Shown here one piece after another: positions 4,129-19,388 of a stretch of 64,000 bases of DNA. Source of the DNA: Spirochaetaceae bacterium. GTDB taxonomy: Bacteria; Spirochaetota; Spirochaetia; DSM-2461. The notes beneath the pieces were generated by a model. It was not told where the DNA came from. It searched no databases and was given only the letters and a program-made list of their open reading frames with translations. The stretch spans positions 608,001-672,000 of the forward strand of contig OZ245056.1 in assembly GCA_965224705.1 (NCBI GenBank), given 5' to 3'. How positions within the stretch are numbered: position 1 is the first letter of the stretch; every line of letters starts with the position of its first letter. Made by a program: the position numbers and the translations under genes.

Positions 4129-5391
4129 ATGTACCATAAAAAAATAGAGAAGCGTGTCGTTATTACAGGATTGGGAACAATTAATCCGATTGCCAACGAT
4201 GTTGAAAGCTACTGGGAAGGTCTGAAGGCCGGTCGATCGGGTATCCGTCGAATCCAGCATGTTAATCTTGACAAATATCATATACATATCGGCGGTGAGG
4301 TTGATTTCCCCGATAATCTGAGATCCTACTTCAAACAGCCTAAGATGATTAAGAGGCTGGACCGCAACATAATTTATGCGCAGGTGGCAGGCATGCAGGC
4401 TCTCCGTGATTCCGGGATAACTGCCGAAGATATGGCCTTTAGATGCGGTGTCGTAATAGGAACGGGCTCCGGGGGTATTCGTGCCCACCAGATAAACCTG
4501 GACCGTGTACATGACGGTAATCTATACGAAGTTTCACCATTCTATCTGATCAGTGCAATTCCAAGCACAGCTACAAGTTATTTTGCTAAAGAAGCAGGAC
4601 TCAAAGGACCCATTTTCTCAATAAATTCAGCCTGTGCCTCGGGAAATCATACATTCGGAGTCGCCTCCATGCTGATCAAGGCAGGTATGGCTGACATAAT
4701 CTTTGCCGGTGGTACAGAATCAGCAGTCAACCACCCGGGAATTATTGCATTTGGAAATATATCGGCTTTATCGACTCGAAATGATGAGCCTCAAAAGGCC
4801 AGTCGTCCCTTTGATGTTGACAGGGATGGCTGTGTACTGGGTGACGGTGCTGGCGTCCTCTGCCTGGAAGAACTGGAACATGCCAGATCCCGAGGTGCCA
4901 GAATCTACGGCGAACTGACAGGATATGGATTTACCAGTGATGCAAGTGATCTGGTTGCCCCCCACCCGGAAGCCGAGGGTTCAACTCGGGCGATCCACTC
5001 AGCTCTGGAAATGGCCGGGCTGCAAACTTCCGATATCGGGCTTATTAACGCTCATGGAACTTCTACGCCAATCGGCGATTCACTGGAAGCCCTGGGGATT
5101 CAAAAAGTATTTAAAGAAAGAAGCTCTGAAATTCCTGTTCACAGCACCAAATCAATGGTTGGTCATCTTCTTGGTGGTGCCAGTGCTGTAGAAGCCATTG
5201 CAGCACTCATGGTTTTCAATGAGAATACTGTCCATGCAACTGTGAACTATGATAATCCGGATCCCGATATAAACCTCAACATCGTTTCAGAAAACATGGA
5301 TGGTTCTCACATTGATCACATCCTTTCCAATGCCTTCGGATTCGGCGGAATGAACGCCTGTGTTGTTCTTTCACGCTATAAAGAGGAATGA
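4129..5391 (+). CDS. fabF: Beta-ketoacyl-ACP synthase II
   Basis: RVVITGLG, SACASG (Cys), NAHGTST, KSMVGHLLG, NAFGFGG. Confidence 0.93.
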   Translation: MYHKKIEKRVVITGLGTINPIANDVESYWEGLKAGRSGIRRIQHVNLDKYHIHIGGEVDFPDNLRSYFKQPKMIKRLDRNIIYAQVAGMQALRDSGITAEDMAFRCGVVIGTGSGGIRAHQINLDRVHDGNLYEVSPFYLISAIPSTATSYFAKEAGLKGPIFSINSACASGNHTFGVASMLIKAGMADIIFAGGTESAVNHPGIIAFGNISALSTRNDEPQKASRPFDVDRDGCVLGDGAGVLCLEELEHARSRGARIYGELTGYGFTSDASDLVAPHPEAEGSTRAIHSALEMAGLQTSDIGLINAHGTSTPIGDSLEALGIQKVFKERSSEIPVHSTKSMVGHLLGGASAVEAIAALMVFNENTVHATVNYDNPDPDINLNIVSENMDGSHIDHILSNAFGFGGMNACVVLSRYKEE

Positions 5392-5483: not shown

Positions 5484-6326
5484 CTATGCCGCTGTGTATG
5501 CCCTCAGCGAATGAGATCTTGAAGGATGACGCAGACGATTCAAAGCTTTCTTCTCAATCTGTCTGATCCGTTCCTTGGTAAGTCCCAATATATCACCAAT
5601 CTCTTTCAATGAAAGAGAGCGGGTATCACCCAGCCCAAAACGGTATCTGATGACTTTTGCCTCTTTTTCAGACAGTGTTCCAAGCACATCATCAATCTCT
5701 TTAGTCAGCATTTTCCTGATGGCCTGCTCCTCAGGAGCAGCGGACAGAACATCTTCAATGAAATCACCAAGGTTGGATGTATCCTCTTTATCATAAACTG
5801 GTGTCTCAAGGGAAACCAGATCTCTGCTGATTGCCTGAAGAACCTTTACGTCTTCTTCCTTAATCCCGGTAATATTGGCGATGAAAGCATCGGAAGGTTG
5901 ATTCCCATATTCGGACAAATATGCTTTCTTGGTGTTTTTAATCTGTACAAGCTCATTGGCTCGATTCATTGGGAGCCGAATCATTCGGGATTTCTCATAA
6001 ATAGCTTTGAGAATGGCCTGGCGAATCCACCAGACAGCATACGAGATGAAGTGATATCCCTTATCAGGATCGTATCGGCTGATGGCATTCATTAATCCAA
6101 TATTTCCTTCACTGATAAGATCTTCCAGAGGTAAACCTTGATTTTGAAATTTCTTCGCTGTACTGACAACAAATCTCAAATTCGCCTCAATAAGCTTTAA
6201 TTGAGCATCTTTGCTGCCGGATGCGGCTGCACGAGCGATTATGTCCTCCTGCTCCCGTGTAAGCAGAGGAACTTCATTGATCTCCTTGAAATACAGAGAT
6301 AGATCATTATCTTTTTTCAACTGCAT
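5484..6326 (-). CDS. Short sigma70-family factor (RpoS-like; regions 1.2, 2, 3, 4)
   Basis: YFKEINEVPLL, ANLRFVVS, DLISEGNIGL, FISYAVWWIRQAI, TKERIRQIEKKAL; start placed at ATG 6326 after GGAG. Confidence 0.9.
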   Translation of the reverse strand: MQLKKDNDLSLYFKEINEVPLLTREQEDIIARAAASGSKDAQLKLIEANLRFVVSTAKKFQNQGLPLEDLISEGNIGLMNAISRYDPDKGYHFISYAVWWIRQAILKAIYEKSRMIRLPMNRANELVQIKNTKKAYLSEYGNQPSDAFIANITGIKEEDVKVLQAISRDLVSLETPVYDKEDTSNLGDFIEDVLSAAPEEQAIRKMLTKEIDDVLGTLSEKEAKVIRYRFGLGDTRSLSLKEIGDILGLTKERIRQIEKKALNRLRHPSRSHSLRAYTAA

Positions 6327-6349
6327 TATCATCTCCTGCCTGCAAACAA

Positions 6350-6364
6350 GCAAGAAACGGGCCA
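6350..6364 (-). promoter_or_regulatory. sigma54 (-24/-12) promoter
   Basis: Minus strand TGGCCCG-TTTC-TTGC with canonical spacing, just upstream of the sigma gene RBS; AT-rich tract further upstream. Confidence 0.7.
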
Positions 6365-6501
6365 AATTTGAAGCTGTTCTATATATTTTATTATTCTATA
6401 ATAACTTATATTTTTTTCATCTGAACTATTTTACGGAGTAACGTCTCTGTTGTACTTTGAGAGTAGCGGGAATCCTTTAAATTGGGCCATTTCTACCCAT
6501 T

Positions 6502-6861
6502 TCAACTACACGGCTCACTAATTGAGTCATAATAACCCATGTCATGGGTTGATGACTCGAAATTGAGACATGGTAACCCGATTCTCAAGTCGTTGACAAA
6601 GTCAAATGGTACGTATGAATTTGGATTATCAGCGACAAAACCCGGGAACACAATGGTAGTACCCCAGTATAAGGTATCCCGTCCCTGACGGCTTAAGCAT
6701 TTCCATTGACTGGAATAACACAGCTCAACCCATGCATCAGTAATCATGCCCATCACAGCATCAAATTCGCAGCGGCCAGAGAAGCGTTTCTGGGGCCGTG
6801 ATGATAAATACCGATTCACCTGGATGTGTTGAAATCTCAGAATCTCCTCTTTAACATCCAC
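6502..6861 (-). CDS. Hypothetical protein
   Basis: 119-aa ORF with GGAG upstream; no recognised motif. Confidence 0.5.
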   Translation of the reverse strand: MDVKEEILRFQHIQVNRYLSSRPQKRFSGRCEFDAVMGMITDAWVELCYSSQWKCLSRQGRDTLYWGTTIVFPGFVADNPNSYVPFDFVNDLRIGLPCLNFESSTHDMGYYDSISEPCS

Positions 6862-6938: not shown

Positions 6939-7469
6939 TTAATCCAATACTGTTACTTCCAGAAGTGCGGCTGTGGCGACTTTCCCACTCACAAGAACCT
7001 GCCCCAGAAGAGTACCAAAATAGGCATCATATTCAACCACACGGGCAAGCAGAGTCATTGTATCGCCCGGTTTTACTTCACTTCTGAAATAGACACCTTT
7101 GATACGGGTTGCCCGGATATTGGGGGGTGTTGCATCATGGCCAATACTGGTGGCATTGTTCTCCATGAAATGAACAAGACACAGGCCTGTTTGACCGATG
7201 GCCTCCACCTGTAAAGTACCGGGATAGACTGGATAGTCTGGAAAATGTCCCTGGAAGAGTGGGAGTTCCGGCGATAGATGATACTCACCTGAGATAATCC
7301 TGTTCTCCAGATCAATTCCCGTGAGATATTCGACAAGAAGAAATGGCTCCCGGTGAGGAAGTATACATTTTATATCGGATAGACCGTAGTCAATTCTGCA
7401 TGGTAAGGCTTCAGGATTGCACAGGGGAACACGGCGATGATGCTTCAGCAGATTGTCTTCGCTATCCAC
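6939..7469 (-). CDS. 3-hydroxyacyl-ACP dehydratase, FabZ-like
   Basis: LPHREPFLLV and FQGHFPDYPVYPGTLQVEAIGQ (His/Glu dyad). Confidence 0.9.
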   Translation of the reverse strand: MDSEDNLLKHHRRVPLCNPEALPCRIDYGLSDIKCILPHREPFLLVEYLTGIDLENRIISGEYHLSPELPLFQGHFPDYPVYPGTLQVEAIGQTGLCLVHFMENNATSIGHDATPPNIRATRIKGVYFRSEVKPGDTMTLLARVVEYDAYFGTLLGQVLVSGKVATAALLEVTVLD

Positions 7470-7522
7470 AGAACACCCCTGACGAAATTCTTCTGCTTCT
7501 GATGTGTGATCCGCCCATGGTA

Positions 7523-8782
7523 TTACTCAATACCTTTTACAATCACATCTTCAATGATATTGAGCGTTTCATCCATCTGGGGTTTGGTAAGCTGAGATGA
7601 TACCGATATGCGAAAACGTCGTGCATGAGCTGGTACTGCGGGAAAATCCACCGGCTGCAGGAATAATCCCCGCTTCTGCATGGCGGCAGCATATCTCATG
7701 AGTTTTGCACCATCAGAACCAATGATGACAGGTATAACCTGAGATTCACTGTTACCTGAATCCAGGCCCAATTTATCCAGACAACCTTTCAAGTAGACCA
7801 CATTTTCCCAGAGTTTATCCCGGAGAGTTGAATCCCTGGTGGCAATTTCCAGTGCTTTCAGCAATCCGCCAGTGACAGCCGGTGATGGGGCGCATGAAAA
7901 ATTCCACGGGGATGCATACCCTTTGAGATAACGAATCAGTCCTTTGTTAGCACACACAAATCCTCCAACTCCGCCAAAGGACTTACTGAGAGTTCCAAAG
8001 GAAACTCCGATACGGTCTTCTACACCAAAATGCTCTGCCACACCACGTCCATTTTCACCGAACATAAGTGTGGAATGTGCTTCATCTATATAGGACCCGG
8101 CACCAAATTTCTCGCAAAGTTCCAGGATCTCAGGCAGCTTTGGGAGATCCCCATCCATGGAATAAACACCTTCCACAACAACAAGAGTGCGCTTATTTCC
8201 AGCTTTCTCAAGCATCTTTTCAAGGCTATCCAGATCATTATGCGCGAAGAACAGCATCCTGGCCCCAGACAGTGTACCGCCATCGATAAGGCTTTTATGG
8301 CATTTTTCATCCATTATCAGGTAGTCACCCTTGCGGATTATTCCCTGAATTGCTCCAACATTGGCCCCGAGGCCACTGGAAAACAGGAGACAATCATCTT
8401 TCTGCTTAAACTTCGCCAGCTTACGGGCTAACTCGACATGAATATCCAGGGTACCTGACAGCAGTGGAGCTCCTGAAGACCCAAGGCCATACTTATCCAG
8501 AGCATCTTTCGCAGCCTGTATTACCTCTGGATGAGTTGACAATCCCAGATAGTTGTATGAAGTCAGGTTGATTATCCGCCGTTCCCTGCCATCAAGATTA
8601 CTGCGAATCAGCGTGGAAACCCTGGGAGCTTCCAGCAATTCCTGTTCAAAGAAACTAAACCCCTGCTTAACCGCGGGATGATTCATCCATTTTTCAAAAT
8701 CCGAGGGAGGAGCCAGGATGTCTGTACTATCATTAAAGAAAAAATCAGCCAGACTGAAATTCAGAATATCGTCATTGGACAT
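7523..8782 (-). CDS. PLP-dependent alpha-oxoamine synthase, serine palmitoyltransferase-like
   Basis: SYNYLGL, EGVYSMDGD, DEAHS, GTLSKSFG (PLP Lys), RFRISVS; family is secure, substrate is inferred from context. Confidence 0.8.
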   Translation of the reverse strand: MSNDDILNFSLADFFFNDSTDILAPPSDFEKWMNHPAVKQGFSFFEQELLEAPRVSTLIRSNLDGRERRIINLTSYNYLGLSTHPEVIQAAKDALDKYGLGSSGAPLLSGTLDIHVELARKLAKFKQKDDCLLFSSGLGANVGAIQGIIRKGDYLIMDEKCHKSLIDGGTLSGARMLFFAHNDLDSLEKMLEKAGNKRTLVVVEGVYSMDGDLPKLPEILELCEKFGAGSYIDEAHSTLMFGENGRGVAEHFGVEDRIGVSFGTLSKSFGGVGGFVCANKGLIRYLKGYASPWNFSCAPSPAVTGGLLKALEIATRDSTLRDKLWENVVYLKGCLDKLGLDSGNSESQVIPVIIGSDGAKLMRYAAAMQKRGLFLQPVDFPAVPAHARRFRISVSSQLTKPQMDETLNIIEDVIVKGIE

Positions 8783-8874
8783 TTAGGATTCTCCTATAAC
8801 AAATCTTTCAGATGACCAGCCGAATAACCCCACCAACCACTGTCCGATCTTATCCTGGATGAATAATAGTATTT

Positions 8875-9132
8875 CTACGTGGACTGGTTTTTATCAAGGT
8901 ATTCCAGGAACTTATCTGCAAGGGTGTCGATATTAGTGAGCTCAGCAAGCTCAGCTCTTGGAACTTTGATGCCCAGTTCACGCATGGAGCAGGAAACCAC
9001 TTCGATCATATCAAGGCTGTTCGCCCCATAATCTTTCATTGAATTCTGTGGATCAATTTCATCAGCTTTAATATCATCAAGGTTTTCCTCAATGATTTTT
9101 TTGATGATATCGATGACTTCTGGTTTTGTCAT
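8875..9132 (-). CDS. Acyl carrier protein, AcpK-like (beta-branching donor type)
   Basis: 85 aa, acidic, YGANSLD phosphopantetheine motif (N rather than D before Ser). Confidence 0.88.
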   Translation of the reverse strand: MTKPEVIDIIKKIIEENLDDIKADEIDPQNSMKDYGANSLDMIEVVSCSMRELGIKVPRAELAELTNIDTLADKFLEYLDKNQST

Positions 9133-9971
9133 AGTTCTTTCTCCTGTAAGCCGATCCTGGTATCATCCATGGATCGTTTAGTAATATATTCCATCATCGC
9201 ATTGTCCCGGAATGGCAATCCAAGGTCAGCGTTGATTATTTGGCCATTTATTGCGGACATCAATCCGCTGCACAGTGCCAGTATAACTTTACCACATTCA
9301 GTGGGTGTTAGGATAGCATCTTCACCAATACCTTTGTTTTCCTTCAGCCACTCAAAATACTCCTCTCCAAATATAGCCGTAAATGAAGGTGTACGAACAG
9401 TTCCAAACCGTATTGTATTCACACGGCAGCCATCATCATAGAGGTGTACGGCTAAATATCGTGTAAAAAACTCCAATAATGCCTTGGAAGCCGCTACATA
9501 GTCATAGCCTCGATAATAGTTGTCCGGCCCGTTTGAAGAAATTCCAACAACAGTCTCAGGATACCTGCCAAATTTCTTTTTCGCCTGACGGACATAGTCT
9601 ATCAGAGGCCAGGAACTGTAATCAAAGGATTTATACAGGGATTTCTTCCTGTAATCCTCCAGGGTTTCCGCCTTCAGGGCGAATCCGACATTGGAGACAA
9701 AAATATCTATCCCATCATGCTCTTTCCCTATCATCTCCATCACGGTGACCGTATCTTCTTCCCGGGAGACATCGGCTTCCAGGATGAGTGGGGATGGGGC
9801 ACCTTTCGACCTGAAGAGTTTCAAGACTTCATCTTCGGGAGTAGAGCCCCAGCGATGAGTAAGAACAGAACGCACACCGGCAGCACCAAGTTCCAGTCCT
9901 GCTGCAAGACCGATACCGCTGGTTCCACCAGTTATGAGAGCCGTTTTCCCGCTTAGATCAATGGAAGTCAT
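9129..9971 (-). CDS. SDR, probable enoyl-ACP reductase (FabI/FabL type)
   Basis: TGGTSGIG; catalytic Y-x6-K (YDYVAASK) typical of enoyl reductases. Confidence 0.75.
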   Translation of the reverse strand: MTSIDLSGKTALITGGTSGIGLAAGLELGAAGVRSVLTHRWGSTPEDEVLKLFRSKGAPSPLILEADVSREEDTVTVMEMIGKEHDGIDIFVSNVGFALKAETLEDYRKKSLYKSFDYSSWPLIDYVRQAKKKFGRYPETVVGISSNGPDNYYRGYDYVAASKALLEFFTRYLAVHLYDDGCRVNTIRFGTVRTPSFTAIFGEEYFEWLKENKGIGEDAILTPTECGKVILALCSGLMSAINGQIINADLGLPFRDNAMMEYITKRSMDDTRIGLQEKEL

Positions 9972-9983
9972 TCAGCCAAACTC

Positions 9984-10736
9984 CTAATTCGCATAAAACT
10001 CATCAATGATTTTCCTGGTTTCAGAGTAACCAAAGCTGATACGATGCATCAGATCCTCCTGTTTCCTGGCTTCATTAAGCAGTTGCCTCTTTCGTGCACT
10101 CAGGGTGTATTTTAACAGTCGAATGGAAGCTGGATTTTTTTCAGCTATCTGCCGTGCGAGATCTTTAGCAACATTTATAACCCGCATTTTTGTAACAAAT
10201 CGGTTGATGTTTGTATTCATACGTTCAAGCTCAATTCCCTTGAAACGTTTCGCCGTGAACATCATTTCATTCGCCACGAAAGGACCAACCATGTCGGCCA
10301 GCAGAGTAGTGATTCCCATCCCGGGGGTAAATCCCATCGACATGAAAACGGCTCCGTAACGGCTTTCTTTCGCCGCGATAACGATGTCTGAACAGCAGGC
10401 CAGGGCTAAGCCGCCTCCCAGAGCATGACCCTCCATGGCCGCAATAATTGGGAATTCGGCATTCAACAGTCTTTCCGACAGAATAAGATCTTTCACGAGA
10501 ATTTTTCCCTCGGTAAGGGCCATCAGAGTATTTTTATCGGCACCGGCACAAAAAACATCATGAAGTCCGCAAAGAACCATAACGCGTGGAGGTTCTCTCA
10601 AAGCTTCCACTTCATCCATAGTTCGCACAAAATCAGCAATGAATGTTTCAGAGAAAACATTTTTTCCCTTCTCATCATTCAATTTAAACCACCCAACACC
10701 ATTAGGATCCACTGTGAAGGTAATGACACCACTCAT
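9984..10736 (-). CDS. Crotonase ECH2 (PksI-like methylglutaconyl-ACP decarboxylase)
   Basis: AMEGHALGGG, FMSMGFTPGMG and C-terminal EDLMH resemble PksI signatures. Confidence 0.85.
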   Translation of the reverse strand: MSGVITFTVDPNGVGWFKLNDEKGKNVFSETFIADFVRTMDEVEALREPPRVMVLCGLHDVFCAGADKNTLMALTEGKILVKDLILSERLLNAEFPIIAAMEGHALGGGLALACCSDIVIAAKESRYGAVFMSMGFTPGMGITTLLADMVGPFVANEMMFTAKRFKGIELERMNTNINRFVTKMRVINVAKDLARQIAEKNPASIRLLKYTLSARKRQLLNEARKQEDLMHRISFGYSETRKIIDEFYAN

Positions 10737-11599
10737 TGATCATCTCCTTGAAATGGTTCACAAAGGGGAACAGTGGGGCGATATGATTCAAACCAACCGG
10801 GCAGTTCTCCACTGGAAAAACCTTTTATTGCTTCCAATGTATCAGGACTGACCGCTATATTCACAAGTTCTTCCACTGCAAGATTCCTCTGTTCCTCAAG
10901 GGTTAAATATCTCAATTTCTGCATAAAAGCTTTTTGCCTGCCTGTAGCCGCCGGTGAAAGACGCATAAGCCGTCGGCCAAGTTTATTCACAGCCTTTTTC
11001 AGATTATAGTCAGAATGCACCTCATCAACCAAGCCCCAGGATAGAGCAGTTTGAGCATCAATGCATGCAGCCGTTTGAACCAGATAAGCCGCCCTCTTAA
11101 CCGGCATCCGCATGGACAGAATATAGGGCATCACATTGGCTGGAATGAGACCAAGATAGAGTTCACTCAGCTCAAAACTTGCAGAATCAGAGGCTATAAC
11201 AACATCACAGGCCGCTGCCAGTCCCACTCCGCCAGCTTTCACAGCACCCCGAATAAGAGCTGTTGTAGTTTTGGAACATTTGTGTATTTCCTCAAGAAGA
11301 CAGGAATAGGCTGTAACACTGTCACGAAACCTGACTGCTGAATCACTGATGTTCTCAGAATTAAAGGCATCAAGATCCATGCCGAGACTGAAAACCGGTC
11401 CGTTGGACCGGAGTAGAATAAACCGGACAGAATCATCGGTAGAAAAATCCCGTACAGCACTCCGGATACCTTCAATCAAACTGGCATTGAGACGATTACC
11501 TCCAGTGGAATCTGTCATCGTTATTATGCCCGCACCAGAATCGATTATAGTCTTTACTGGCAAAAGTTCAGCTCCAGCCGTAGTGACGGACGTATCCAT
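10733..11599 (-). CDS. Crotonase ECH1 (PksH-like HMG-ACP dehydratase)
   Basis: FSLGMD, AGGVGLAAACD, FELSELYLGLIPANVMP resemble PksH. Confidence 0.85.
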   Translation of the reverse strand: MDTSVTTAGAELLPVKTIIDSGAGIITMTDSTGGNRLNASLIEGIRSAVRDFSTDDSVRFILLRSNGPVFSLGMDLDAFNSENISDSAVRFRDSVTAYSCLLEEIHKCSKTTTALIRGAVKAGGVGLAAACDVVIASDSASFELSELYLGLIPANVMPYILSMRMPVKRAAYLVQTAACIDAQTALSWGLVDEVHSDYNLKKAVNKLGRRLMRLSPAATGRQKAFMQKLRYLTLEEQRNLAVEELVNIAVSPDTLEAIKGFSSGELPGWFESYRPTVPLCEPFQGDDQ

Positions 11600-12797
11600 C
11601 CACTTTATTCAGTGTCAGCAGTCCTTTCCCCTGATAGTTACTGTCCCATAATCCAGCAGGGAAATCGCGATCCGGTATATAATTTTCCTTCTCAATACTG
11701 TCCTTGCGTTTGACATCAACCTCTTCGTATTCCTGAACACTGGCTTCACGGCGGCGATCCAATTGTCCATCAATATCCATGGTCCTGACTTGCTCAATAC
11801 CGCCGTCAAGAACCCGGCCACTCCAGAATTCCCCTATGGCACCCGATCCATACGCATAGTAACCAATACGATCCCCGGCCCGTACAGGGGCTTCTCCAGA
11901 AAGCAGGCTGGCCGTCCCTACAAAGTTGCTGGAGCCGTATGTGGAACCAAGCCGCCGAGAATACTTCAACGCAGGAAATACTCTTTTCTGAAAGTCTTCC
12001 TGCACCTCAGCTTTCTTACGCAGACTGTTAATATTACAGAGTGTTCGGTGAGCCTGGAATGCCATACCAGGAAAGGGGGTATGATAACATAACCATTGAT
12101 GATCGGCATCAAAGTCAACTTCGGTCCCTGTTCGTGAGACATAATCATCCCAGGCTCCTTCCAGGGCATCCAGGTATGAATACAAACTCACCTCATTATT
12201 CCCTACTTCACCGGTGGCACTTGGACGCCAGGTATCATAGATATCAGTAGACCATGTCCCTTTGCGGTATGGTTCAAACTCAACAATTTTCGGCACTTCG
12301 CTGATCAGAAGAGCAGCCGCAACGCCGCCAAGAACAAATTCTTCCTTTTTTTTCAGATGCTCCCGGGAGAAGTCAGAGGCTATGATCAAAGCTTTACGGC
12401 CTTGATTCAGTCCTGATGCAACCCAGTTGACTCCCGTATCCAGAGCAGCCAGACCGCTGTAGCAGGCATGTTTGACTTCATAATTCCTTATATTCTGATT
12501 TAAACCCAGCGCTCCGATAATATTCGTGGAAATTGGTTTCCCAAAGTCGACTGAACCTTCCGTTCCCACAATGAGCATGCCAATACTATCCGGGTCAACA
12601 TCATTCATCAGCGTCTTTGCCGCATTGGCACCCATGGTAACCGTATCCTCCCATACAGGATTCAAAGATCGGGTGTCGATAAGATAATCACCAATAACGG
12701 TTTTAGGATCCTTGTTCCGGGCTAGAGCTATTTGCCGCTGTTCAACGAACATGCTGCATCCATAGATATTCAATTTCTCGATTCCCACTCTATTCAT
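11568..12797 (-). CDS. HMG-CoA-synthase-like HMG-ACP synthase (PksG type)
   Basis: GTEGSVDFGKP (Glu), EVKHACYSG (Cys), YHTPFPGM (His); adjacent to ECH1/ECH2. Confidence 0.92.
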   Translation of the reverse strand: MNRVGIEKLNIYGCSMFVEQRQIALARNKDPKTVIGDYLIDTRSLNPVWEDTVTMGANAAKTLMNDVDPDSIGMLIVGTEGSVDFGKPISTNIIGALGLNQNIRNYEVKHACYSGLAALDTGVNWVASGLNQGRKALIIASDFSREHLKKKEEFVLGGVAAALLISEVPKIVEFEPYRKGTWSTDIYDTWRPSATGEVGNNEVSLYSYLDALEGAWDDYVSRTGTEVDFDADHQWLCYHTPFPGMAFQAHRTLCNINSLRKKAEVQEDFQKRVFPALKYSRRLGSTYGSSNFVGTASLLSGEAPVRAGDRIGYYAYGSGAIGEFWSGRVLDGGIEQVRTMDIDGQLDRRREASVQEYEEVDVKRKDSIEKENYIPDRDFPAGLWDSNYQGKGLLTLNKVDGYVRHYGWS

Positions 12798-12838
12798 ATA
12801 ATTTCCTCATAATTTCATTCCTGATCCTATCGGGATTC

Positions 12839-13579
12839 CTATGGAATATAGGTTAATCCTCCGGCAACACATAGGTTCTCTCCATTGATAAAACCAGCTT
12901 TTTCTGTTGTAAGATAATACACCGCATCCGCTATTTCCTCCGCTTCCCCTATCCTTTTGATGGGACAGTACTCCATCCATATCTTTTTCAGTTTCTGTGC
13001 CAGATGCTCCTCTGTCATATCCGTTTCCACATATCCAACCGTAACGACATTGGAAGTGATTCCCTTGGCACCATATTCCCGGGCTACTGTTTTCGACAGA
13101 GTCACCAGGCCGCCCTTGCTGACAGAGTAACTTACCTGACCGCTTGAACCATCCTGGGCAAGCGATGAGATGTTAATTATGCGGCCATATCTTGCTCCAA
13201 CCATGGACATGAGGAACTGTCGGATCATGTAAAAAGGGCCCGTTAAGTTGGTGCGGATTACATCATTCCATTCATCATTACTCATGAAGGCAACGGCATT
13301 ATTCCGATTAATCGCTGCATTATTGACCAGAACTCCAATTTCTCCGAAGTCGTTCAGAGCCTCTTCCACGACAGATTCAACCTGTTCCGGGTATCCCTGG
13401 TCCAATTGATAGGATTGGATTTTTGCATTCGAGTTGATTTTTTTAGCTGATTCGATGGTTTTGGCCGCAGCTTCGATATTGCTGGCATAGCTGAAGGCAC
13501 ATCCATAGCCTTCCTCAATGAACTTGAGAACAATTGCCTGGCCGATACCTCTGGAACCGCCAGTAACAAAGCAATTCAT
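12839..13579 (-). CDS. 3-oxoacyl-ACP reductase, FabG-like
   Basis: TGGSRGIG, NNAA, ISS, YSVSK. Confidence 0.88.
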   Translation of the reverse strand: MNCFVTGGSRGIGQAIVLKFIEEGYGCAFSYASNIEAAAKTIESAKKINSNAKIQSYQLDQGYPEQVESVVEEALNDFGEIGVLVNNAAINRNNAVAFMSNDEWNDVIRTNLTGPFYMIRQFLMSMVGARYGRIINISSLAQDGSSGQVSYSVSKGGLVTLSKTVAREYGAKGITSNVVTVGYVETDMTEEHLAQKLKKIWMEYCPIKRIGEAEEIADAVYYLTTEKAGFINGENLCVAGGLTYIP

Positions 13580-14862
13580 GATCCCTCCTCATATCGTTTA
13601 ATAAGTGAGCAACAGTTGATACCTCCGAAACCAAAGGAATTTTTGAGCATCATACTGATGTGATAGTCCTCTGCTTCTGTTATAACATTGAGCTTGATTT
13701 CCGGATCCAGCCTGTCAATATTGATTGTGGGATGAAGACGTCCATGCTTCATTTGCAGTAATCCGCCAATGGTTTCCACCAGTGGACTGCCCCAGCAGGT
13801 ATGTCCCAGCATGGATTTCGGGGCATTGATTCTAAGATTCCCGGCATGTTCTCCAAATGTCTCCTGAATGGCCAGAACTTCCTGTAAATCACCGGACGGG
13901 GTTCCCGTTGCATGGCAATTGACATAGTCAACCTCCCAGGGTTCGACTCCTGTCATGGATAGCAGATCTTTCATAACTCTGGCCTGGTTTTCTGCACCGG
14001 GCATGGGAAGGTGATTGGCATTGGATCCCGCTTTCACCCCCAGTAACTCCCCATAGATAGGAGCATTCCTTTCCAGTGCGGTATCAAGGCTTTCAAGAAT
14101 GAGCGTAGCTGAACCATGGGAGTAGAGGAAACCACATCGATCTGAATCAAATGGCCTGGACGCTTCGGTGGGCCTGTTTTGATAGTCCGGACGAATGACC
14201 ACAGCATTGATGATTGCTGAAGCCTGGATATCAGCGGGAGAAACATCAAAAGGAGGACCGCATACAACGGACCGGACTGATTCACCGCTGAGGATGTCTC
14301 GCAGTCCTTCCCTGAGTGCTAAATTACCGCTTGCACAGGCTCCTCCAATGGTAAACGAGGGCCCCTTTGCGCCCAATACTTCCGCAACAATTCCGGGGAT
14401 ATTGGGATCTATCGCCTCCACTCCCGCCAGTGCATCAATCCACTCAGGCTCTTCCTGGAACTGTTTTGTTACCTCAAACATGTAATTGGAATTGAAATTA
14501 TGTCCGGCAACCATCACCCCGGTATCGACGGGATTTCCTTCATCAATCTTCAAGCCTGCGTCTTTCCAGGCAGCCAGAGTTGTAAGAATTGCCATACGTG
14601 CGGAAAAAGTTGTATATCGAAAAAGCTTCTTCACTGTTTTGAAGCGATCCCTGCCTAAAAAATCCTGAAATTGCTCCAATGCAGCTTTTGTATCGTAATC
14701 GCCAAGATCCCCTCCGATCTTACACTCAACATTGCTCAGGTCAATTGATGTCCATTGTTTCATTCCGGACTTTCCAGCAATGAGAGCTTCATAGTAGCCG
14801 TCCAGTGTATCGGCAAGAGGGTTGATCGTACCCATACCGGTAATGACTATACGTTTATTCAT
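13576..14862 (-). CDS. Stand-alone ketosynthase (PksF/FabF-like) with intact Cys-His-His
   Basis: FTIGGACASG, NCHATGT, KSMLGHT, NSFGFGG. Confidence 0.88.
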   Translation of the reverse strand: MNKRIVITGMGTINPLADTLDGYYEALIAGKSGMKQWTSIDLSNVECKIGGDLGDYDTKAALEQFQDFLGRDRFKTVKKLFRYTTFSARMAILTTLAAWKDAGLKIDEGNPVDTGVMVAGHNFNSNYMFEVTKQFQEEPEWIDALAGVEAIDPNIPGIVAEVLGAKGPSFTIGGACASGNLALREGLRDILSGESVRSVVCGPPFDVSPADIQASAIINAVVIRPDYQNRPTEASRPFDSDRCGFLYSHGSATLILESLDTALERNAPIYGELLGVKAGSNANHLPMPGAENQARVMKDLLSMTGVEPWEVDYVNCHATGTPSGDLQEVLAIQETFGEHAGNLRINAPKSMLGHTCWGSPLVETIGGLLQMKHGRLHPTINIDRLDPEIKLNVITEAEDYHISMMLKNSFGFGGINCCSLIKRYEEGS

Positions 14863-15782
14863 AGTAAACCTTCGATAGCATCCAGTTTTCCCGCAGGTCT
14901 TGCCCGAAGTTTACTTCTCATGTTTTTCCACAACCCGGTAAGAACTGTTCCAGGTCCCACTTCGAGAACCTGATCCGGGTTAAGATCCATCAATGCTTTT
15001 TGACTGTCAACCCATCGGACACAATGGTCAAGCTGGTCCAGACATGTCTGTCTCAATTCATCACCTCTGCTGGCAGTTGCCGCTGTAGTATTGACATATA
15101 TGGGGATCTTCGGATCTGAAAAGACGATACCATCAAGGAATTCAGAAAACTCCGGTTTCGCATCTTCAAGCAATGGGGAATGAAAAGGACCGGAGACCAT
15201 GAGTTTCACCTGTTTCATCGCACCAGCCTCTTCCAATTTTTCCTCAGCCTTACTCAATCCAGCAGCCGTACCGGAAAGGACGGATTGATTCGGCGAACTG
15301 TGGAGTGCGATATAAACGTCATCAATTCCATTAATGGCCATGGCAATTTTTTCTCTATCCAGACCCAGTACGGCACTCATTCCCACAGGACCATCCGGTG
15401 TATCTTTGGTTCGACTGATTCTTTCAAGCAGTTTGCCTCTTTTATCAACAACTCGCAGAAGATCCCCCCGGGTCAACACTCCAGCCTGGTAAAGAGCTGT
15501 GTATTCTCCAAGACTGAATCCCGCACAGGCAGAAGCTGTAATACCACGAGCTTCCAGAGCCATGGATGCTGCCATACTCACAAGAATTATGGCAACCTGA
15601 GCGACATCGGTCGCTTTGAGTTCCTCTGCACTGCTATCAAACAGGATCTTTGCCCAATCACGACCGTTGATGTCCGATGCTTCATCGAATAATTGACGCA
15701 CATTCAGATCGGCATTATATAAATCTTGCCCCATACCAGGATACTGAGCCCCCTGGCCTGGAAAGAGAAATATTGTTTTCAT
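14859..15782 (-). CDS. Malonyl-CoA:ACP transacylase, FabD-like
   Basis: FLFPGQGAQ, AGFSLGEY, VSGPFHS, EVGPG; start placed at second Met. Confidence 0.92.
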   Translation of the reverse strand: MKTIFLFPGQGAQYPGMGQDLYNADLNVRQLFDEASDINGRDWAKILFDSSAEELKATDVAQVAIILVSMAASMALEARGITASACAGFSLGEYTALYQAGVLTRGDLLRVVDKRGKLLERISRTKDTPDGPVGMSAVLGLDREKIAMAINGIDDVYIALHSSPNQSVLSGTAAGLSKAEEKLEEAGAMKQVKLMVSGPFHSPLLEDAKPEFSEFLDGIVFSDPKIPIYVNTTAATASRGDELRQTCLDQLDHCVRWVDSQKALMDLNPDQVLEVGPGTVLTGLWKNMRSKLRARPAGKLDAIEGLL

Positions 15783-15853
15783 TGCTTCTCCATCTGATTC
15801 TTGAGTATGCAAAGTACCCTGGATCAGAAAAATATTTCAAGTACATTAAATCA

Positions 15854-16981
15854 TCAAAGAGTCTTATCATACACTCGATGGATTTTATAATGCACACAAC
15901 CCCACTTTTCCAATAGATTTCTCAAAGGATAGTTAGTTTCAAGAATCCAGCTGAACTCACCAATGTCCATATTGGTACTCAGTCCATCATCATTGAGTTT
16001 AGTCATCATCAGTCCATCAATTCCCTTGCCCTGATATTCCGGTAACACGCCAAAAGCAGCAACACGAAGTATTTTGGCCTTTTTCTTCGCTGCCAGCAGT
16101 TTGAAGATTCCGAAAGGGAAAAGCTTCCCCTCAAGCTTCTGTAAAGCGAAATTTATATCTGGTATGGGGAAACAAAACCCAACAGCTTCGCCATCTATCT
16201 CAGCGATATAAGTAAGCTTTGGGTTCATCATTATCTTTATGCCTTTTGCCATTTTCTTGAATTCAGGGTCATACCAGGGAGTAAATCCCCAGTTGTTATG
16301 CCAACCTCTTTCCCAGATTTCCTTTACAACTGCAACTTCGGCATCCCAGTTTTTAATGCTGGCCGTCCTGATAGTAATACCATTGCGTTTCGCTGCCAGT
16401 TCAGAAATCCGCCGGATTCTGTCACTGACAGGCGCCTCTCTTACATTCCTCCGATAGGAGTATAGATCCTGTGCCCTGGTATAACCGGCATTTTCAATCT
16501 GCTGACCATAATACGGCGCCGAGTAGGGCATATCGATAACTGGCAATTCTTCAAAATTATTAATCTGGTTCCCAACCTGGAAATTGGTGGAACCATTGAC
16601 AGGCCCCATAACCTTCTCCATGCCCCTGGATCTCAACCATTCTTCTGCTGTTCTGAATAACGCTTCGCTGACATCCGGACGGTCAAGGCATTCATAGTAA
16701 CCAAAGAAACCGGTCTGAGTCTTTTGATATTCAACATAATTCTGATCAATAAATGCGGCGATGCGGCCAAGAACCTTCCCATTTTCCCTGGCAAGCCAGA
16801 ATTGCCCTTCGGTATGGTCATACATGGGATTCTTCTTATTCATAACCTGGCGTAGATCCATATTGAGGGGAGGGACCCAGTTACTGTATCGGAAACAATG
16901 GCTCCAATACACATCGTAGGGGAGACGAATAAATTCCTTATTATCTTTTCGGTTTACGACTTCACCGATCTCAACATCCAT
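15854..16981 (-). CDS. GNAT-fold N-acyltransferase, YghO/bacterial ceramide synthase-like
   Basis: FIRLPY..NWVPPL, GRIAAF, GFFGYYEC, PYSAPYY, NWGFTP, PDIN, GVLPEYQGKG, SWILETN. Confidence 0.78.
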   Translation of the reverse strand: MDVEIGEVVNRKDNKEFIRLPYDVYWSHCFRYSNWVPPLNMDLRQVMNKKNPMYDHTEGQFWLARENGKVLGRIAAFIDQNYVEYQKTQTGFFGYYECLDRPDVSEALFRTAEEWLRSRGMEKVMGPVNGSTNFQVGNQINNFEELPVIDMPYSAPYYGQQIENAGYTRAQDLYSYRRNVREAPVSDRIRRISELAAKRNGITIRTASIKNWDAEVAVVKEIWERGWHNNWGFTPWYDPEFKKMAKGIKIMMNPKLTYIAEIDGEAVGFCFPIPDINFALQKLEGKLFPFGIFKLLAAKKKAKILRVAAFGVLPEYQGKGIDGLMMTKLNDDGLSTNMDIGEFSWILETNYPLRNLLEKWGCVHYKIHRVYDKTL

Positions 16982-17084: not shown

Positions 17085-19388
17085 TCACCGATTACGAATC
17101 CTCTCATAGAAAGTGATGGCTGCAGGTATGAAAATCACTGTTCCTGTCATTGTTGAAAAAAGTGTTCCAGCAATAAGAAATCCAAAGAATACAACTGGCT
17201 TGAAGCTGGCAAAACATAGAACCAGAAGTCCGGCGACCAGAGAAAATGTGGTTAGCACAATGGGACGGCCCGTAATGTGCAAACTTGATGAGAGAGCGGA
17301 ATCATACGGTTGTAGAAGTCTTTGCTTCCTATACTGCAAAATGAAATGAACGGCATCATCCAGTCCGACGCCCACCGTTACATTCGTTACCAGAATAGTT
17401 GTCAGATCCAGGGGAATTCTGGTCAAATAGAGCGTAATGAAATAAAAGAAGATACCACTGAGCAAGGGTACCAGGGCAATCAAGCTGAATACAAACGATC
17501 GGAAAAAGATCCAGGTCACAATCATGCCCAGAGTGATGGAAATCAAAGTAGATCTCAGTTGATCACGTTTAATCGTCCGGGATGATTCCATAATTAGAAG
17601 TGTATTGCCCCACACATTAATTTCAACTGAATCATCAAAATAAACGGCTGATTCATCGTTGACAAAGTCCTGAAACTTCCGAACATCGTTTTCATTGATC
17701 ATGCTGTATGTATCTGTTTCAGCCAATTTGAGATAAACAGTTATCTGGGATGCATCATCGTTAATAATGGAGGAATCCTGACCAAAGATTATTTTATCTC
17801 GCGGGATCATACTGAAATAACGGTAGAGTAAAAGTATTAATCCCCTGGATTCCGGAACAGTCTCCTCCCCATTCACAGCTTCATTCATTGCTTTGAGAAT
17901 TCCAATAAATGACCGCTTGCTGGTTACAGAGGGATGTTCGCTGAGAACTGTTTCAAATCTGTCTGTTAAACTCAGAATTTTCGGATTGAGGAAAAAATTC
18001 TTCTCACCATTTGCCGCCGTCAGTGTTATATTGAATGTCTGGGAGCCGCCGCTGTGTTCGTTGATGAATTGACTCCCGATAATAAGGGGATCATCTGAGG
18101 GAAAATAAGAAAAGTAATCCGACTGGTGAAGGATGTGGGGGTAACCTGACAGGAAAAACACAAACAGCAGGATGAATGAAGCAAGCAGGATGTATCGATA
18201 TCGAGATGCCCACTGGCCGAACCGGGTGACAATGCTGATTATTGGACCATCTTTAATACGTTTGCGATGGATTGCCGGGGGTGTTTTAAGGATGTAAAAA
18301 ACAGATGGCAGAAAAGAAAGCGCCAGTATGGCACAAAAGAAAATTCCAAGGCTTATAGATAACCCAAACTCCCGGAGGGGACGAATAGTTGTTGTCAACA
18401 AACTCAAAAAACTGATCATTGTAGTGAGTGCGGCTATTATAACAGTGCGGATAACGTGTTCAACAGCATCAGTCAGCCATTGCATTTTTTCAGTTTCTCC
18501 AGATTTTTCAATCCGGTAATACTCATTGAGGATATGAATCGTATAAGAACTGCCAATCGTAAGAACCAGTGCCGGGACAATAACAGTGAGAACGGTGATC
18601 TTGAAACCAATCATGGACATAACACCCAGAGTCCAGATTGTTCCAACGACTGTGACCATAACAGGTAGAATGACAGCTCTCAGTGAGCGGAAACTAAGCC
18701 AGAAGATAGTAAGCATGGTAATCAGAGCTAGAATCATCAATCTGGAAAAATCTCTCAACAAGTAAAACGCCACTCGTTCTTGAAACGGGATCTCACCTGT
18801 ATGGTACACCCTGACCACCTCTTTGAGAGGTTTGATAGCCGCATCGAAAGAAATCATGAATGAGGCAGAATCCACCACCGTTCTACTTATAAATGCAGCA
18901 GTTAAAATTCGGCCATTGTCGGAAACAACCAGATTTCTCGACAGTGAGTTGCTCCTGACACGTTTTTCAAAAATCTCCAATTCTTCAAGATTCAATGGTG
19001 CCCTTCCAGTCGGAGAAACTGTTGCGGGAATGATCCGGCGGCCTTCCGCATCAAATGAAATGAAATTGAATGGTGACAGGGCAACTATGATTTCTGGTAT
19101 ATCCAGTATGGCATCAATTGTGTTTTGGAATTCCTGGAGGACCTTGAGATTATACAAATCATTGCCATAAATACTGATAAAGACAAAATTAGTGATTTCT
19201 TTCTCAATTCCCAGTTCCGTTCGTATTTTGTCTATCCGATCATTTTGTCTGGGTGTCAGATTGTTCACATCGGTATCGATACCTATATCTGCTGCTTTCC
19301 AGCCCATAAATACAGTGACCAATATCGTCAGGACTATAATGAGTTTCGAGTTTCTGAGAACGAATCGGATAAATTTCCTGATACTCAA
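17085..19388 (-). CDS. MMPL/RND family transporter
   Basis: Duplicated architecture of 1 TM, periplasmic domain and TM bundle; IGSSYTIH and GVGLDDAVH motifs. Confidence 0.9.
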   Translation of the reverse strand: MSIRKFIRFVLRNSKLIIVLTILVTVFMGWKAADIGIDTDVNNLTPRQNDRIDKIRTELGIEKEITNFVFISIYGNDLYNLKVLQEFQNTIDAILDIPEIIVALSPFNFISFDAEGRRIIPATVSPTGRAPLNLEELEIFEKRVRSNSLSRNLVVSDNGRILTAAFISRTVVDSASFMISFDAAIKPLKEVVRVYHTGEIPFQERVAFYLLRDFSRLMILALITMLTIFWLSFRSLRAVILPVMVTVVGTIWTLGVMSMIGFKITVLTVIVPALVLTIGSSYTIHILNEYYRIEKSGETEKMQWLTDAVEHVIRTVIIAALTTMISFLSLLTTTIRPLREFGLSISLGIFFCAILALSFLPSVFYILKTPPAIHRKRIKDGPIISIVTRFGQWASRYRYILLASFILLFVFFLSGYPHILHQSDYFSYFPSDDPLIIGSQFINEHSGGSQTFNITLTAANGEKNFFLNPKILSLTDRFETVLSEHPSVTSKRSFIGILKAMNEAVNGEETVPESRGLILLLYRYFSMIPRDKIIFGQDSSIINDDASQITVYLKLAETDTYSMINENDVRKFQDFVNDESAVYFDDSVEINVWGNTLLIMESSRTIKRDQLRSTLISITLGMIVTWIFFRSFVFSLIALVPLLSGIFFYFITLYLTRIPLDLTTILVTNVTVGVGLDDAVHFILQYRKQRLLQPYDSALSSSLHITGRPIVLTTFSLVAGLLVLCFASFKPVVFFGFLIAGTLFSTMTGTVIFIPAAITFYERIRNR

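Follow-up and report, generated by a model that had tools for sequence, protein, structure and literature searches.

A 64,000-nucleotide stretch of the genome of a Spirochaetaceae bacterium (GCA_965224705.1, contig OZ245056.1, positions 608,001 to 672,000; hereafter the window, meaning the whole stretch) carries on its minus strand a run of eleven co-oriented genes, from 16981 down to 6939, in which enzymes of fatty acid synthesis stand together with a beta-branching cassette of the polyketide type and an alpha-oxoamine synthase. The genes encode, in order, a GNAT-fold N-acyltransferase (GNAT), FabD, a ketosynthase (KS), FabG, a 3-hydroxy-3-methylglutaryl-ACP synthase (HMGS; ACP, acyl carrier protein), ECH1, ECH2, an enoyl reductase (ER), an ACP, the alpha-oxoamine synthase (AOS) and FabZ, and all eleven labels are backed by Pfam/NCBIfam scans. 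Five junctions overlap (FabD/KS, KS/FabG, ECH1/ECH2 and ER/ACP by 4 nt each, HMGS/ECH1 by 32 nt), the other five gaps measure 12-92 nt, and the GC content of the operon is the same as that of its surroundings. These genes, their order and their five overlaps had been proposed in an earlier note drawn up from the sequence, and open reading frame (ORF) positions and family scans confirm them; a twelfth gene, a FabF paralog, lay outside the coordinates of that note (Table 1). The catalytic residues of the KS, HMGS, ECH1, ECH2, ER and AOS are intact and kept in relatives, and the catalytic motifs of FabG, FabZ and FabD are present. The operon includes a discrete type II fatty acid synthase (FAS) set with its catalytic residues, comprising acyltransferase (AT), KS, ketoreductase, dehydratase, ER and ACP, and contains no FabH.

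Table 1. Genes of the operon and the associated FabF paralog, with their positions in the window and the basis of each assignment.
Feature	Position	Strand	Basis
GNAT-fold N-acyltransferase, bacterial ceramide synthase (YghO/CerS) type	15854..16981	-	PF00583; YghO homology; single tblastn match in genome
FabD malonyl-CoA:ACP transacylase	14859..15812	-	PF00698; TIGR00128 241 bits, below cut-off; GxSxG and His motifs; single genome match
Ketosynthase related to beta-branching KS0 (PksF family), intact Cys176-His317-His354	13576..14862	-	Top NCBIfam model PRK07103, 314 bits, below cut-off of 445
FabG-type 3-oxoacyl-ACP reductase	12839..13579	-	TIGR01830 top model, below cut-off; YxxxK motif
HMG-ACP synthase (PksG/CurD type), Glu-Cys-His triad intact	11568..12797	-	Best solved relatives PksG and CurD; tree; motifs
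ECH1 dehydratase (PksH-like)	10733..11599	-	PRK07112 top model, below cut-off; conserved Glu
ECH2 decarboxylase (PksI/CurF-like)	9984..10736	-	PRK07110 234 bits, above cut-off of 215; best solved relatives CurF ECH2 and PksI; conserved His231
FabI/FabL-type enoyl-ACP reductase	9129..9971	-	Ten best solved relatives are enoyl-ACP reductases; conserved Y-X6-K motif YDYVAASK
Acyl carrier protein, donor (CurB/AcpK) type, Ser39; sole ACP in operon	8875..9132	-	CurB E=7e-10; PRK07117 top model, below cut-off
PLP-dependent alpha-oxoamine synthase, separate clade (not canonical SPT, BioF or Kbl)	7523..8782	-	Best solved relative S. multivorum SPT; trees and AU tests; His162 and Lys267 intact
FabZ-type 3-hydroxyacyl-ACP dehydratase	6939..7469	-	PF07977; PRK00006 top model, below cut-off; His/Glu motifs
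Second ketosynthase, FabF paralog, probable elongating KS	4129..5391	+	TIGR03150 465 bits; co-occurrence; own clade

With regard to the beta-branching cassette, the operon has four of the components known from polyketide synthases (PKSs), namely an HMGS of the ACP-dependent type, an ECH1 dehydratase, an ECH2 decarboxylase and a donor-type ACP. Against solved structures the HMGS scores 226 bits with PksG and CurD and 173-208 with bacterial HMG-CoA synthases, and in a quick tree (all trees here are quick trees with SH-aLRT support only) it groups with PKS-type HMGSs, apart from the mevalonate HMGS of the same genome. Its beta6-beta7 loop is without the insertions of CurD and PksG and has the length found in that mevalonate HMGS. 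The ACP matches CurB at E=7e-10 as opposed to 2e-5 or worse for the ACPs of FAS, a difference of four orders of magnitude, and the residue after the CurB-type Ser motif, which is Arg in CurB, is Met, Ile, Leu or Val in the operon ACP and its relatives. No separate acceptor ACP on a PKS is present, as the operon has one ACP and the genome no modular PKS. A single ACP can suffice, since the curacin donor ACP acts as a surrogate acceptor with acetoacetyl at three-fold lower efficiency (PMC11522927).

The KS differs from its counterpart in PKS cassettes. In the earlier note it had been equated with PksF, a condensation-incompetent KS0 in which the active-site Cys is exchanged for Ser; however, Cys176 is kept, which makes it a condensing relative of these proteins and no PksF equivalent. 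The Cys-His-His triad is found in 119 of the 119 best homologs and at all 32 cassette loci, and Ser occurs only in the control, a trans-AT PKS cassette (an example on an Enterobacter plasmid). In an unrooted tree of 43 rows, a Cys-type KS clade (support 100) stands beside a Ser-type clade (99), both apart from FabF. The retained triad and the position beside the Ser-type KS0 thus suggest that the operon KS can condense.

The genome is a single 3.0-Mb contig (G000:C1), rated 95% complete, and searches of it for ketosynthase, carrier-protein and condensation domains revealed no modular PKS or non-ribosomal peptide synthetase (NRPS), either in the window or elsewhere. All six ketosynthase-profile matches lie in stand-alone frames of 398-444 amino acids (aa), the six carrier-protein matches lie in frames of 79-103 aa, and the condensation-domain search gave none. 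The earlier remark that the 64 kb hold no such assembly line therefore extends to the whole genome, in which the unlinked type I PKS that might have been the true substrate of the cassette was not found either. Functions with which the operon could be confused are encoded separately. The complete housekeeping FAS at ~2.23 Mb (acc-fabH-fabG-fabF-fabZ-fabV) rules out the operon in that role, the complete mevalonate operon with its own HMGS (HMGS, IDI-2, HMGR, decarboxylase and kinase; G000:C1:1627500-1634200, L203) rules out the operon HMGS as a mevalonate enzyme, and a true Kbl is encoded with tdh at yet another site. Given these separate loci and the absence of modular PKSs and NRPSs, the operon represents a dedicated type II synthase, the second in the genome, without an assembly line to serve. 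Its FabD, being the only one found in the genome, is probably shared with the housekeeping FAS. An aryl-polyene-like cluster with two KSs, two ACPs, an ApeP dehydratase, an ammonia-lyase, a CoA ligase and acyltransferases is also present (G000:C1:2050000-2066000, L205), as is a candidate Sfp-type phosphopantetheinyl transferase gene (G000:C1:1901949).

Action in trans on a modular PKS encoded elsewhere, with the lipid genes as bystanders, would be the normal role of an HMGS cassette (PMC11522927; the Enterobacter plasmid carries an example), and a genome rated 95% complete leaves some room for it. Nevertheless, this explanation is largely refuted and extremely improbable: neither a multidomain KS or ACP nor a condensation domain was found in the one-contig genome, the Cys of the KS is retained, and the cassette stays joined to FabG, ER, FabZ and AOS across two phyla.

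The distribution of the system was followed in 38 genomes of the family, 400 genomes of the spirochaete phylum and 301 genomes of the phylum to which an Enhygromyxa genome belongs (the myxobacterial phylum). The order KS-FabG-HMGS-ECH1-ECH2-ER-ACP-AOS-FabZ recurs in other spirochaete families at ~35-75% protein identity and so does not reflect chance; this is the conserved core, often accompanied by a phosphopantetheinyl transferase and the FabF paralog. The latter is found at no less than 57% identity in exactly 12 of the 38 family genomes, the same 12 that are marked by ECH2 and a close AOS, while the other 26 have at most 42% identity or no match. It adjoins the operon in many loci of other families and forms its own clade apart from the housekeeping FabF of the genome, and it is part of the system. 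In the phylum sample, ECH2 has a match in 30 of the 400 genomes, 21 of the close type (54-63%) and nine of a distant type (42-47%). Among the close-type genomes the AOS lies in the fetched stretch of 16, the stretches of the other five ending at a contig edge just past ECH2. A GNAT is encoded somewhere in all 21 synthase-type cassette genomes, in none of the nine with the synthase-less variant and in 109 of the 370 others; the nine distant-type genomes have no AOS in the fetched stretch and no GNAT match. The co-occurrence of AOS and GNAT with the cassette in other genomes, on which the earlier proposal hinged, is thereby borne out. Membership of the GNAT and FabD in the operon holds for the genome at hand, but both lie outside the conserved core, FabD being absent from most relatives' loci and the GNAT usually being encoded elsewhere. 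In G369 and G417, two single-contig genomes rated 99% complete, the eleven genes keep the order seen here, with a FabF paralog close by.

Loci outside the family reveal how the parts are combined. The enoyl reductase has matches in 18 of the 301 genomes from the myxobacterial phylum. Eight loci of that phylum carry the cassette and an AOS, each with two enoyl reductases and a Cys-type KS, and ten have the ER-ACP-AOS-FabZ back end without the cassette, two of them cut by contig ends. In eight of these ten, a large protein precedes a FabG-ER-ACP-AOS-FabZ back end whose AOS is 58-64% identical, and the four such proteins that were scanned have a fatty acyl-AMP ligase (FAAL) joined to further domains as FAAL-ACP-KS(-AT). 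As this protein replaces the cassette before the same back end, the cassette sits in the chain-supply slot. In two of the nine distant-type spirochaete genomes (L162:4594-13238 and L166:4353-12558) the order is KS, S-adenosylmethionine-dependent methyltransferase, FabG, HMGS, ECH1, ECH2, ACP, PlsC-like acyltransferase and AcpS, with no AOS, which suggests beta-branched chains in glycerolipids. Together the swaps show a modular design: either the cassette or FAAL-KS supplies the chain at the front end, the reductive steps in the middle take place on one unusual ACP, and an AOS or a PlsC-like enzyme provides the output. The exchange of FAAL-ACP-KS for the cassette and of the PlsC-like acyltransferase for the AOS makes a branched lipid chain the likely product.

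Several of the loci deserve mention in their own right. Those with FAAL-ACP-KS(-AT) followed by FabG, ER, ACP, AOS and FabZ (L214-L222, L026) look like an unbranched sister pathway in the myxobacterial phylum, where the Enhygromyxa locus (L212) has the cassette, AOS, GNAT and a CerR-like gene together. Two cassette loci (L226:6148-10527, L228:5859-10364) encode two AOSs, one in a longer frame that holds an ACP-like match, and their product could be a doubly modified or two-headed amino lipid. The Serratia fonticola plasmid CP013914.1 (L181, L183) has a Cys-type KS cassette with FabD, ACP, FabZ, FabG and enoyl reductase, and a lipocalin-like gene comes next; no AOS is among the features seen on this record, which contains frameshifts and in which both ends carry a copy of the cassette. 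In Verrucomicrobia (Candidatus Udaeobacter, L030-L071) a closely related AOS lies beside a GNAT, and the loci scanned contain CDP-alcohol transferase, fatty-acid hydroxylase or glycosyltransferase genes, making them a candidate sphingolipid locus in abundant soil bacteria. A metagenome scan yielded five loci, three with the cassette.

Among solved structures the AOS scores highest with the serine palmitoyltransferase (SPT) of S. multivorum (263 bits), ahead of a BioF/Kbl-type enzyme (242), Kbl (228), BioF (175 or less) and CqsA (116). It reaches no NCBIfam cut-off: the values are 326/640, 276/500 and 246/670 bits (score/cut-off) for the SPT models, which reference SPTs pass, 329/426 and 324/460 for the BioF/Kbl families and 190/428 for CqsA, which is not its closest relative. 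The pyridoxal phosphate (PLP) lysine motif GTLSK267S and the stacking His162 are intact. In the tree the AOS falls in a clade (support 100) with AOSs of the myxobacterial phylum and Verrucomicrobia, and beyond that clade it is neighboured by a PKS-linked AOS and PigH, at a support of only 87-90. The approximately unbiased (AU) test rejects a clade with BioF/Kbl (p=0.0009), so that the grouping named in the earlier note as fatal to its proposal does not occur. The AU tests were run on 28 rows and a quick tree, with groups named after an earlier AOS tree had been seen; that tree was built without 16 Verrucomicrobia rows and 7 rows that were duplicate or partial. A Black Sea metagenome study has also described a wider 'Spt-like' clade, which it delimits by the presence of bCerS/CerR neighbours (bioRxiv 2024.01.25.577268).

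The GNAT aligns over its full length with E. coli YghO (36% identity over 379 aa, E=7e-80), whose gene adjoins those of an SPT that passes the family cut-off, an ACP, an epimerase and an acyl-AMP ligase. This layout matches the proteobacterial aasR-cerR-acpR-spt plus cerS set (PMC11324152). A search by sequence found no solved relative of the GNAT, which is single-copy in the genome and is placed among SPT-linked GNATs in a poorly resolved tree. Within the family, nine of the 12 cassette genomes have it at 41% identity or more and one at 32%, and distant copies occur in six of the 26 cassette-less genomes. Across the phylum, bCerS-type GNAT homologs were detected in 130 of the 400 sampled genomes, far more than have the cassette, and ceramide-like N-acylation may on this count be widespread among spirochaetes. 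Furthermore, an unlinked CerR-like gene (G000:C1:1582003-1583025), absent from the earlier note, is the best match of all five epimerases taken from beside SPT or GNAT genes, with 26-35% identity to them in what is a broad family. It is present in seven of the 12 family cassette genomes, including all six that are at least 90% complete, and in none of the other 26, and so tracks the cassette.

The observed gene content, active sites, conservation and co-occurrence are probably best accounted for by a dedicated type II FAS with a built-in beta-branching cassette that makes a methyl-branched long-chain acyl-ACP for a ceramide-like lipid. FabD would load malonyl onto the single ACP, and the Cys-retaining KS would both decarboxylate malonyl-ACP to acetyl-ACP and condense to acetoacetyl-ACP. 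HMGS, ECH1 and ECH2 would then convert acetoacetyl-ACP to 3-methylcrotonyl-ACP, which the enoyl reductase would turn into isovaleryl-ACP, and the FabF paralog, with FabG, FabZ and the reductase, would elongate this to an iso-branched acyl-ACP. The AOS is predicted to condense the chain with an amino acid, for which serine is the best guess, and so to form a 3-keto long-chain base, which the GNAT would N-acylate and whose ketone the unlinked CerR-like reductase would reduce. The earlier proposal of a methyl-branched acyl-ACP, its condensation with an amino acid and N-acylation gains from three computational checks (the AOS grouping, the co-occurrence of AOS and GNAT, and the absence of a PKS). 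In proteobacteria a dedicated ACP feeds SPT (PMC11324152), and the PKS-linked synthase SgaB makes sphinganines from serine (PMC12134224). A branched, amino acid-derived lipid is the most secure part of this reading and quite likely; that it is N-acylated and ceramide-like is somewhat favoured, and the exact iso-terminal, serine-derived version can be put forward only tentatively.

Several points weigh against the pathway as drawn. The AU test rejects the AOS from the canonical SPT clade (p=0.0002), and its 326 bits with the closest SPT model stand against a cut-off of 640. In addition, four residues near the substrate in the S. multivorum SPT, Asn52, Ser81, Arg82 and Met271, are replaced by Tyr, Ala, Pro and Asn (for the roles of 52, 81 and 271, PMC10196870). 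The AOS is thus no canonical SPT, and with the enzyme outside the SPT clade and its substrate pocket changed, serine is not established as its substrate; SPT look-alikes can also fail to make sphingolipid (PMC8895605). The GNAT was not found in two of the 12 family cassette genomes (73% and 88% complete), and it lies within the fetched stretch at only three of the 21 phylum loci, many of which end at contig edges. The sampled genomes are moreover related, the 21 coming from 11 families, so that the counts overstate independence. The branch position is not fixed by any of the sequence evidence gathered. Myxobacteria usually have other routes to iso-starters, and the eight loci of that phylum nonetheless keep the cassette, with a pair of enoyl reductases that fits a more complex chain. 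Finally, the GNAT and CerR-like gene could serve a sulfonolipid instead, since a second AOS lies in a row with cysD, cysN and a cysteate synthase that scores above its cut-off (G000:C1:2384263-2389825; L202:4263-9825), which looks like a capnine-type sulfonolipid pathway in a spirochaete.

From these points an alternative can be built in which the product is no ceramide: the amino acid used by the AOS would be a different one, such as Ala, Gly or a polar residue, or a free amino-ketone would be released for signalling or defence, while the GNAT and CerR-like genes would belong to the separate cysteate locus. The position of the AOS outside the SPT clade, with its changed pocket and its weakly supported neighbours PigH and the PKS-linked synthase, is in agreement with this, as are the second AOS beside the cysteate synthase, the Serratia plasmid and the GNAT homologs in the 109 cassette-less spirochaete genomes. 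It is nevertheless unlikely, since the GNAT separates synthase-type from synthase-less cassette genomes without exception (21/21 vs 0/9), within the family only cassette genomes have the CerR-like gene, and the closest outside AOSs, those of Verrucomicrobia, adjoin GNAT and other lipid-type genes.

As for the position of the branch, an iso-terminus is favoured because it needs only the ancestral acetoacetyl specificity, because the cassette occupies the starter slot, and because the enzymes that commonly supply iso-starters were not detected. The genome yielded no branched-chain 2-oxoacid dehydrogenase E1 (two weak matches cover ~70 of 300 positions), nor any crotonase other than those of the operon, so that the usual routes seem absent. 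Branching could conversely come late, the FabF paralog extending a long chain on the dedicated ACP, the Cys-type KS mainly supplying acetyl-ACP and the HMGS branching the last beta-keto intermediate, which would place a methyl at position 3 of the acyl chain and position 5 of the long-chain base, or elsewhere inside the chain. The FAAL-ACP-KS variant shows that a preformed fatty acid is acceptable to the back end, long acceptors are used by PKS-type HMGSs (PMC11522927), and the pocket segments of the KS are closer to KS0 than to FabF. Yet with one ACP the selectivity would have to come from the chain, acetoacetyl is the ancestral acceptor, and no FAAL is linked to this operon; the short beta6-beta7 loop of the HMGS also speaks against it, though weakly, as the alignment includes a trans-AT HMGS that exceeds it by a single residue. 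Late branching therefore seems an unlikely course.

The two KSs might instead alternate, so that every second cycle is branched and a polymethyl, isoprenoid-like chain of the phytanoyl pattern arises on the ACP, giving a terpenoid-looking amino lipid. Both KSs are dedicated and co-occur, reductive and branching enzymes are both kept, and two enoyl reductases are present at 8/8 myxobacterial-phylum cassette loci; a tetramethyl sphingosine, aplidiasphingosine, is known from a tunicate. Such repeated branching is improbable all the same, as the literature search found no precedent for this programming, a FabF-like gene is present in only one of the eight myxobacterial-phylum stretches, and the mevalonate pathway of the genome could supply isoprenoid chains more simply. 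A bolder generalisation, itself distinctly unlikely though slightly less so, would see a family of free-standing, lipid-making beta-branching synthases, with a condensing KS and one ACP as both donor and acceptor, that plug into an AOS, a PlsC or neither and build polymethyl isoprenoid-like chains by alternating KSs. If this were true, animal-associated spirochaetes would make terpenoid-looking sphingoid lipids. On the same bold reading the family may also be the living form of the ancestor of PKS cassettes, which would have arisen when the KS lost its cysteine, a history that the unrooted tree allows and does not show.

Regarding the surroundings of the operon, an MMPL/RND-type transporter gene (17085-19388 of the window, minus strand) lies 103 nt upstream of the GNAT gene and has little cover by RNA contigs. 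It was considered as the exporter of the operon and is not counted as part of it, since only in L013, the nearest relative, is a close homolog linked. Between FabZ and the FabF paralog (5484-6861, minus strand) lie a 119-aa ORF without family match and a sigma-70 factor; the ORF recurs at the same place in L013 and L016, and the sigma factor was confirmed in L016. Promoter and terminator scans stayed near shuffle level (35 vs 29.9 and 21 vs 14.6), and a phage search gave nothing relevant to the operon. In three metatranscriptome runs on molluscs, all from one study, RNA contigs of low depth reach 26, 15 and 10 of 30 bins, which is only a hint of expression, as neither strand nor co-transcription can be read from contigs and DNA carry-over is possible.

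If the favoured pathway is correct, polyketide beta-branching moves from secondary metabolism into membrane-lipid synthesis, and bacteria gain an acetate-only, ACP-bound route to branched long-chain bases. Ceramide-like lipids would be predicted in spirochaetes that include invertebrate symbionts (L017, L020), and bacterial sphingolipids could act on the host. All the operon enzymes are small and discrete, and the pathway is thus directly testable by reconstitution. No description of this gene set was found in the openly accessible literature, and both the Cys-retaining KS clade and the AOS clade are without a characterised member found in the literature search. A cultured spirochaete has been reported to contain an aminolipid of unidentified nature together with iso-C15:0, in a paper whose accessible part makes no mention of polyketide genes (PMC4511686); it is not used here as evidence on the operon.

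Compared with the HMGS cassettes of PKSs, such as those of bacillaene (AcpK/PksF/G/H/I), curacin (CurB/C/D/E/F) and virginiamycin (Vir), the HMGS, ECH1, ECH2 and ACP have their best matches in CurD/PksG, PRK07112, CurF/PksI and CurB, and the KS comes from the same wider family. In contrast to those cassettes, the KS keeps its Cys, there is one ACP with no separate acceptor ACP or PKS, and the cassette forms part of a full type II FAS whose chain goes to an AOS. Its stand-alone use is not unprecedented, as the type II PKS for fogacin offers a partial precedent: judging from the title of a 2019 paper by Sato, it reportedly combines beta-alkylation with two KS-CLF pairs (CLF, chain-length factor) for polyketides. 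Beta-branching enzymes would thus work with discrete type II enzymes there too, whereas the operon has no CLF and has the full set of reductive FAS enzymes and an AOS. The Aib route of Myxococcus xanthus, which leads through HMG, methylglutaconyl, methylcrotonyl and isovaleryl intermediates to iso-fatty-acid starters from acetate, has the same net chemistry as the favoured model; it is however CoA-bound and uses a different decarboxylase and reductase, unlike the ACP-bound operon with its PKS-type ECH1 and ECH2.

The Spt/bCerS/CerR pathway with AcpR and AasR in Caulobacter and other proteobacteria shares with this genome a CerS-type GNAT, a CerR-like reductase, a dedicated ACP and an AOS. The AOS here, however, lies outside the SPT clade, and the chain would be built and branched on the ACP and not loaded by an acyl-ACP synthetase. 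The Pseudomonas SgaAB system likewise has a dedicated chain builder that hands an acyl chain to an oxoamine synthase for long-chain bases (PMC12134224), but SgaA is an iterative type I PKS without an HMGS cassette, as opposed to discrete type II enzymes with a cassette and a GNAT, and SgaB was compared by its description only. Set beside all of these, the operon appears to encode a real, conserved and apparently undescribed lipid pathway, assembled from known parts in a new arrangement.

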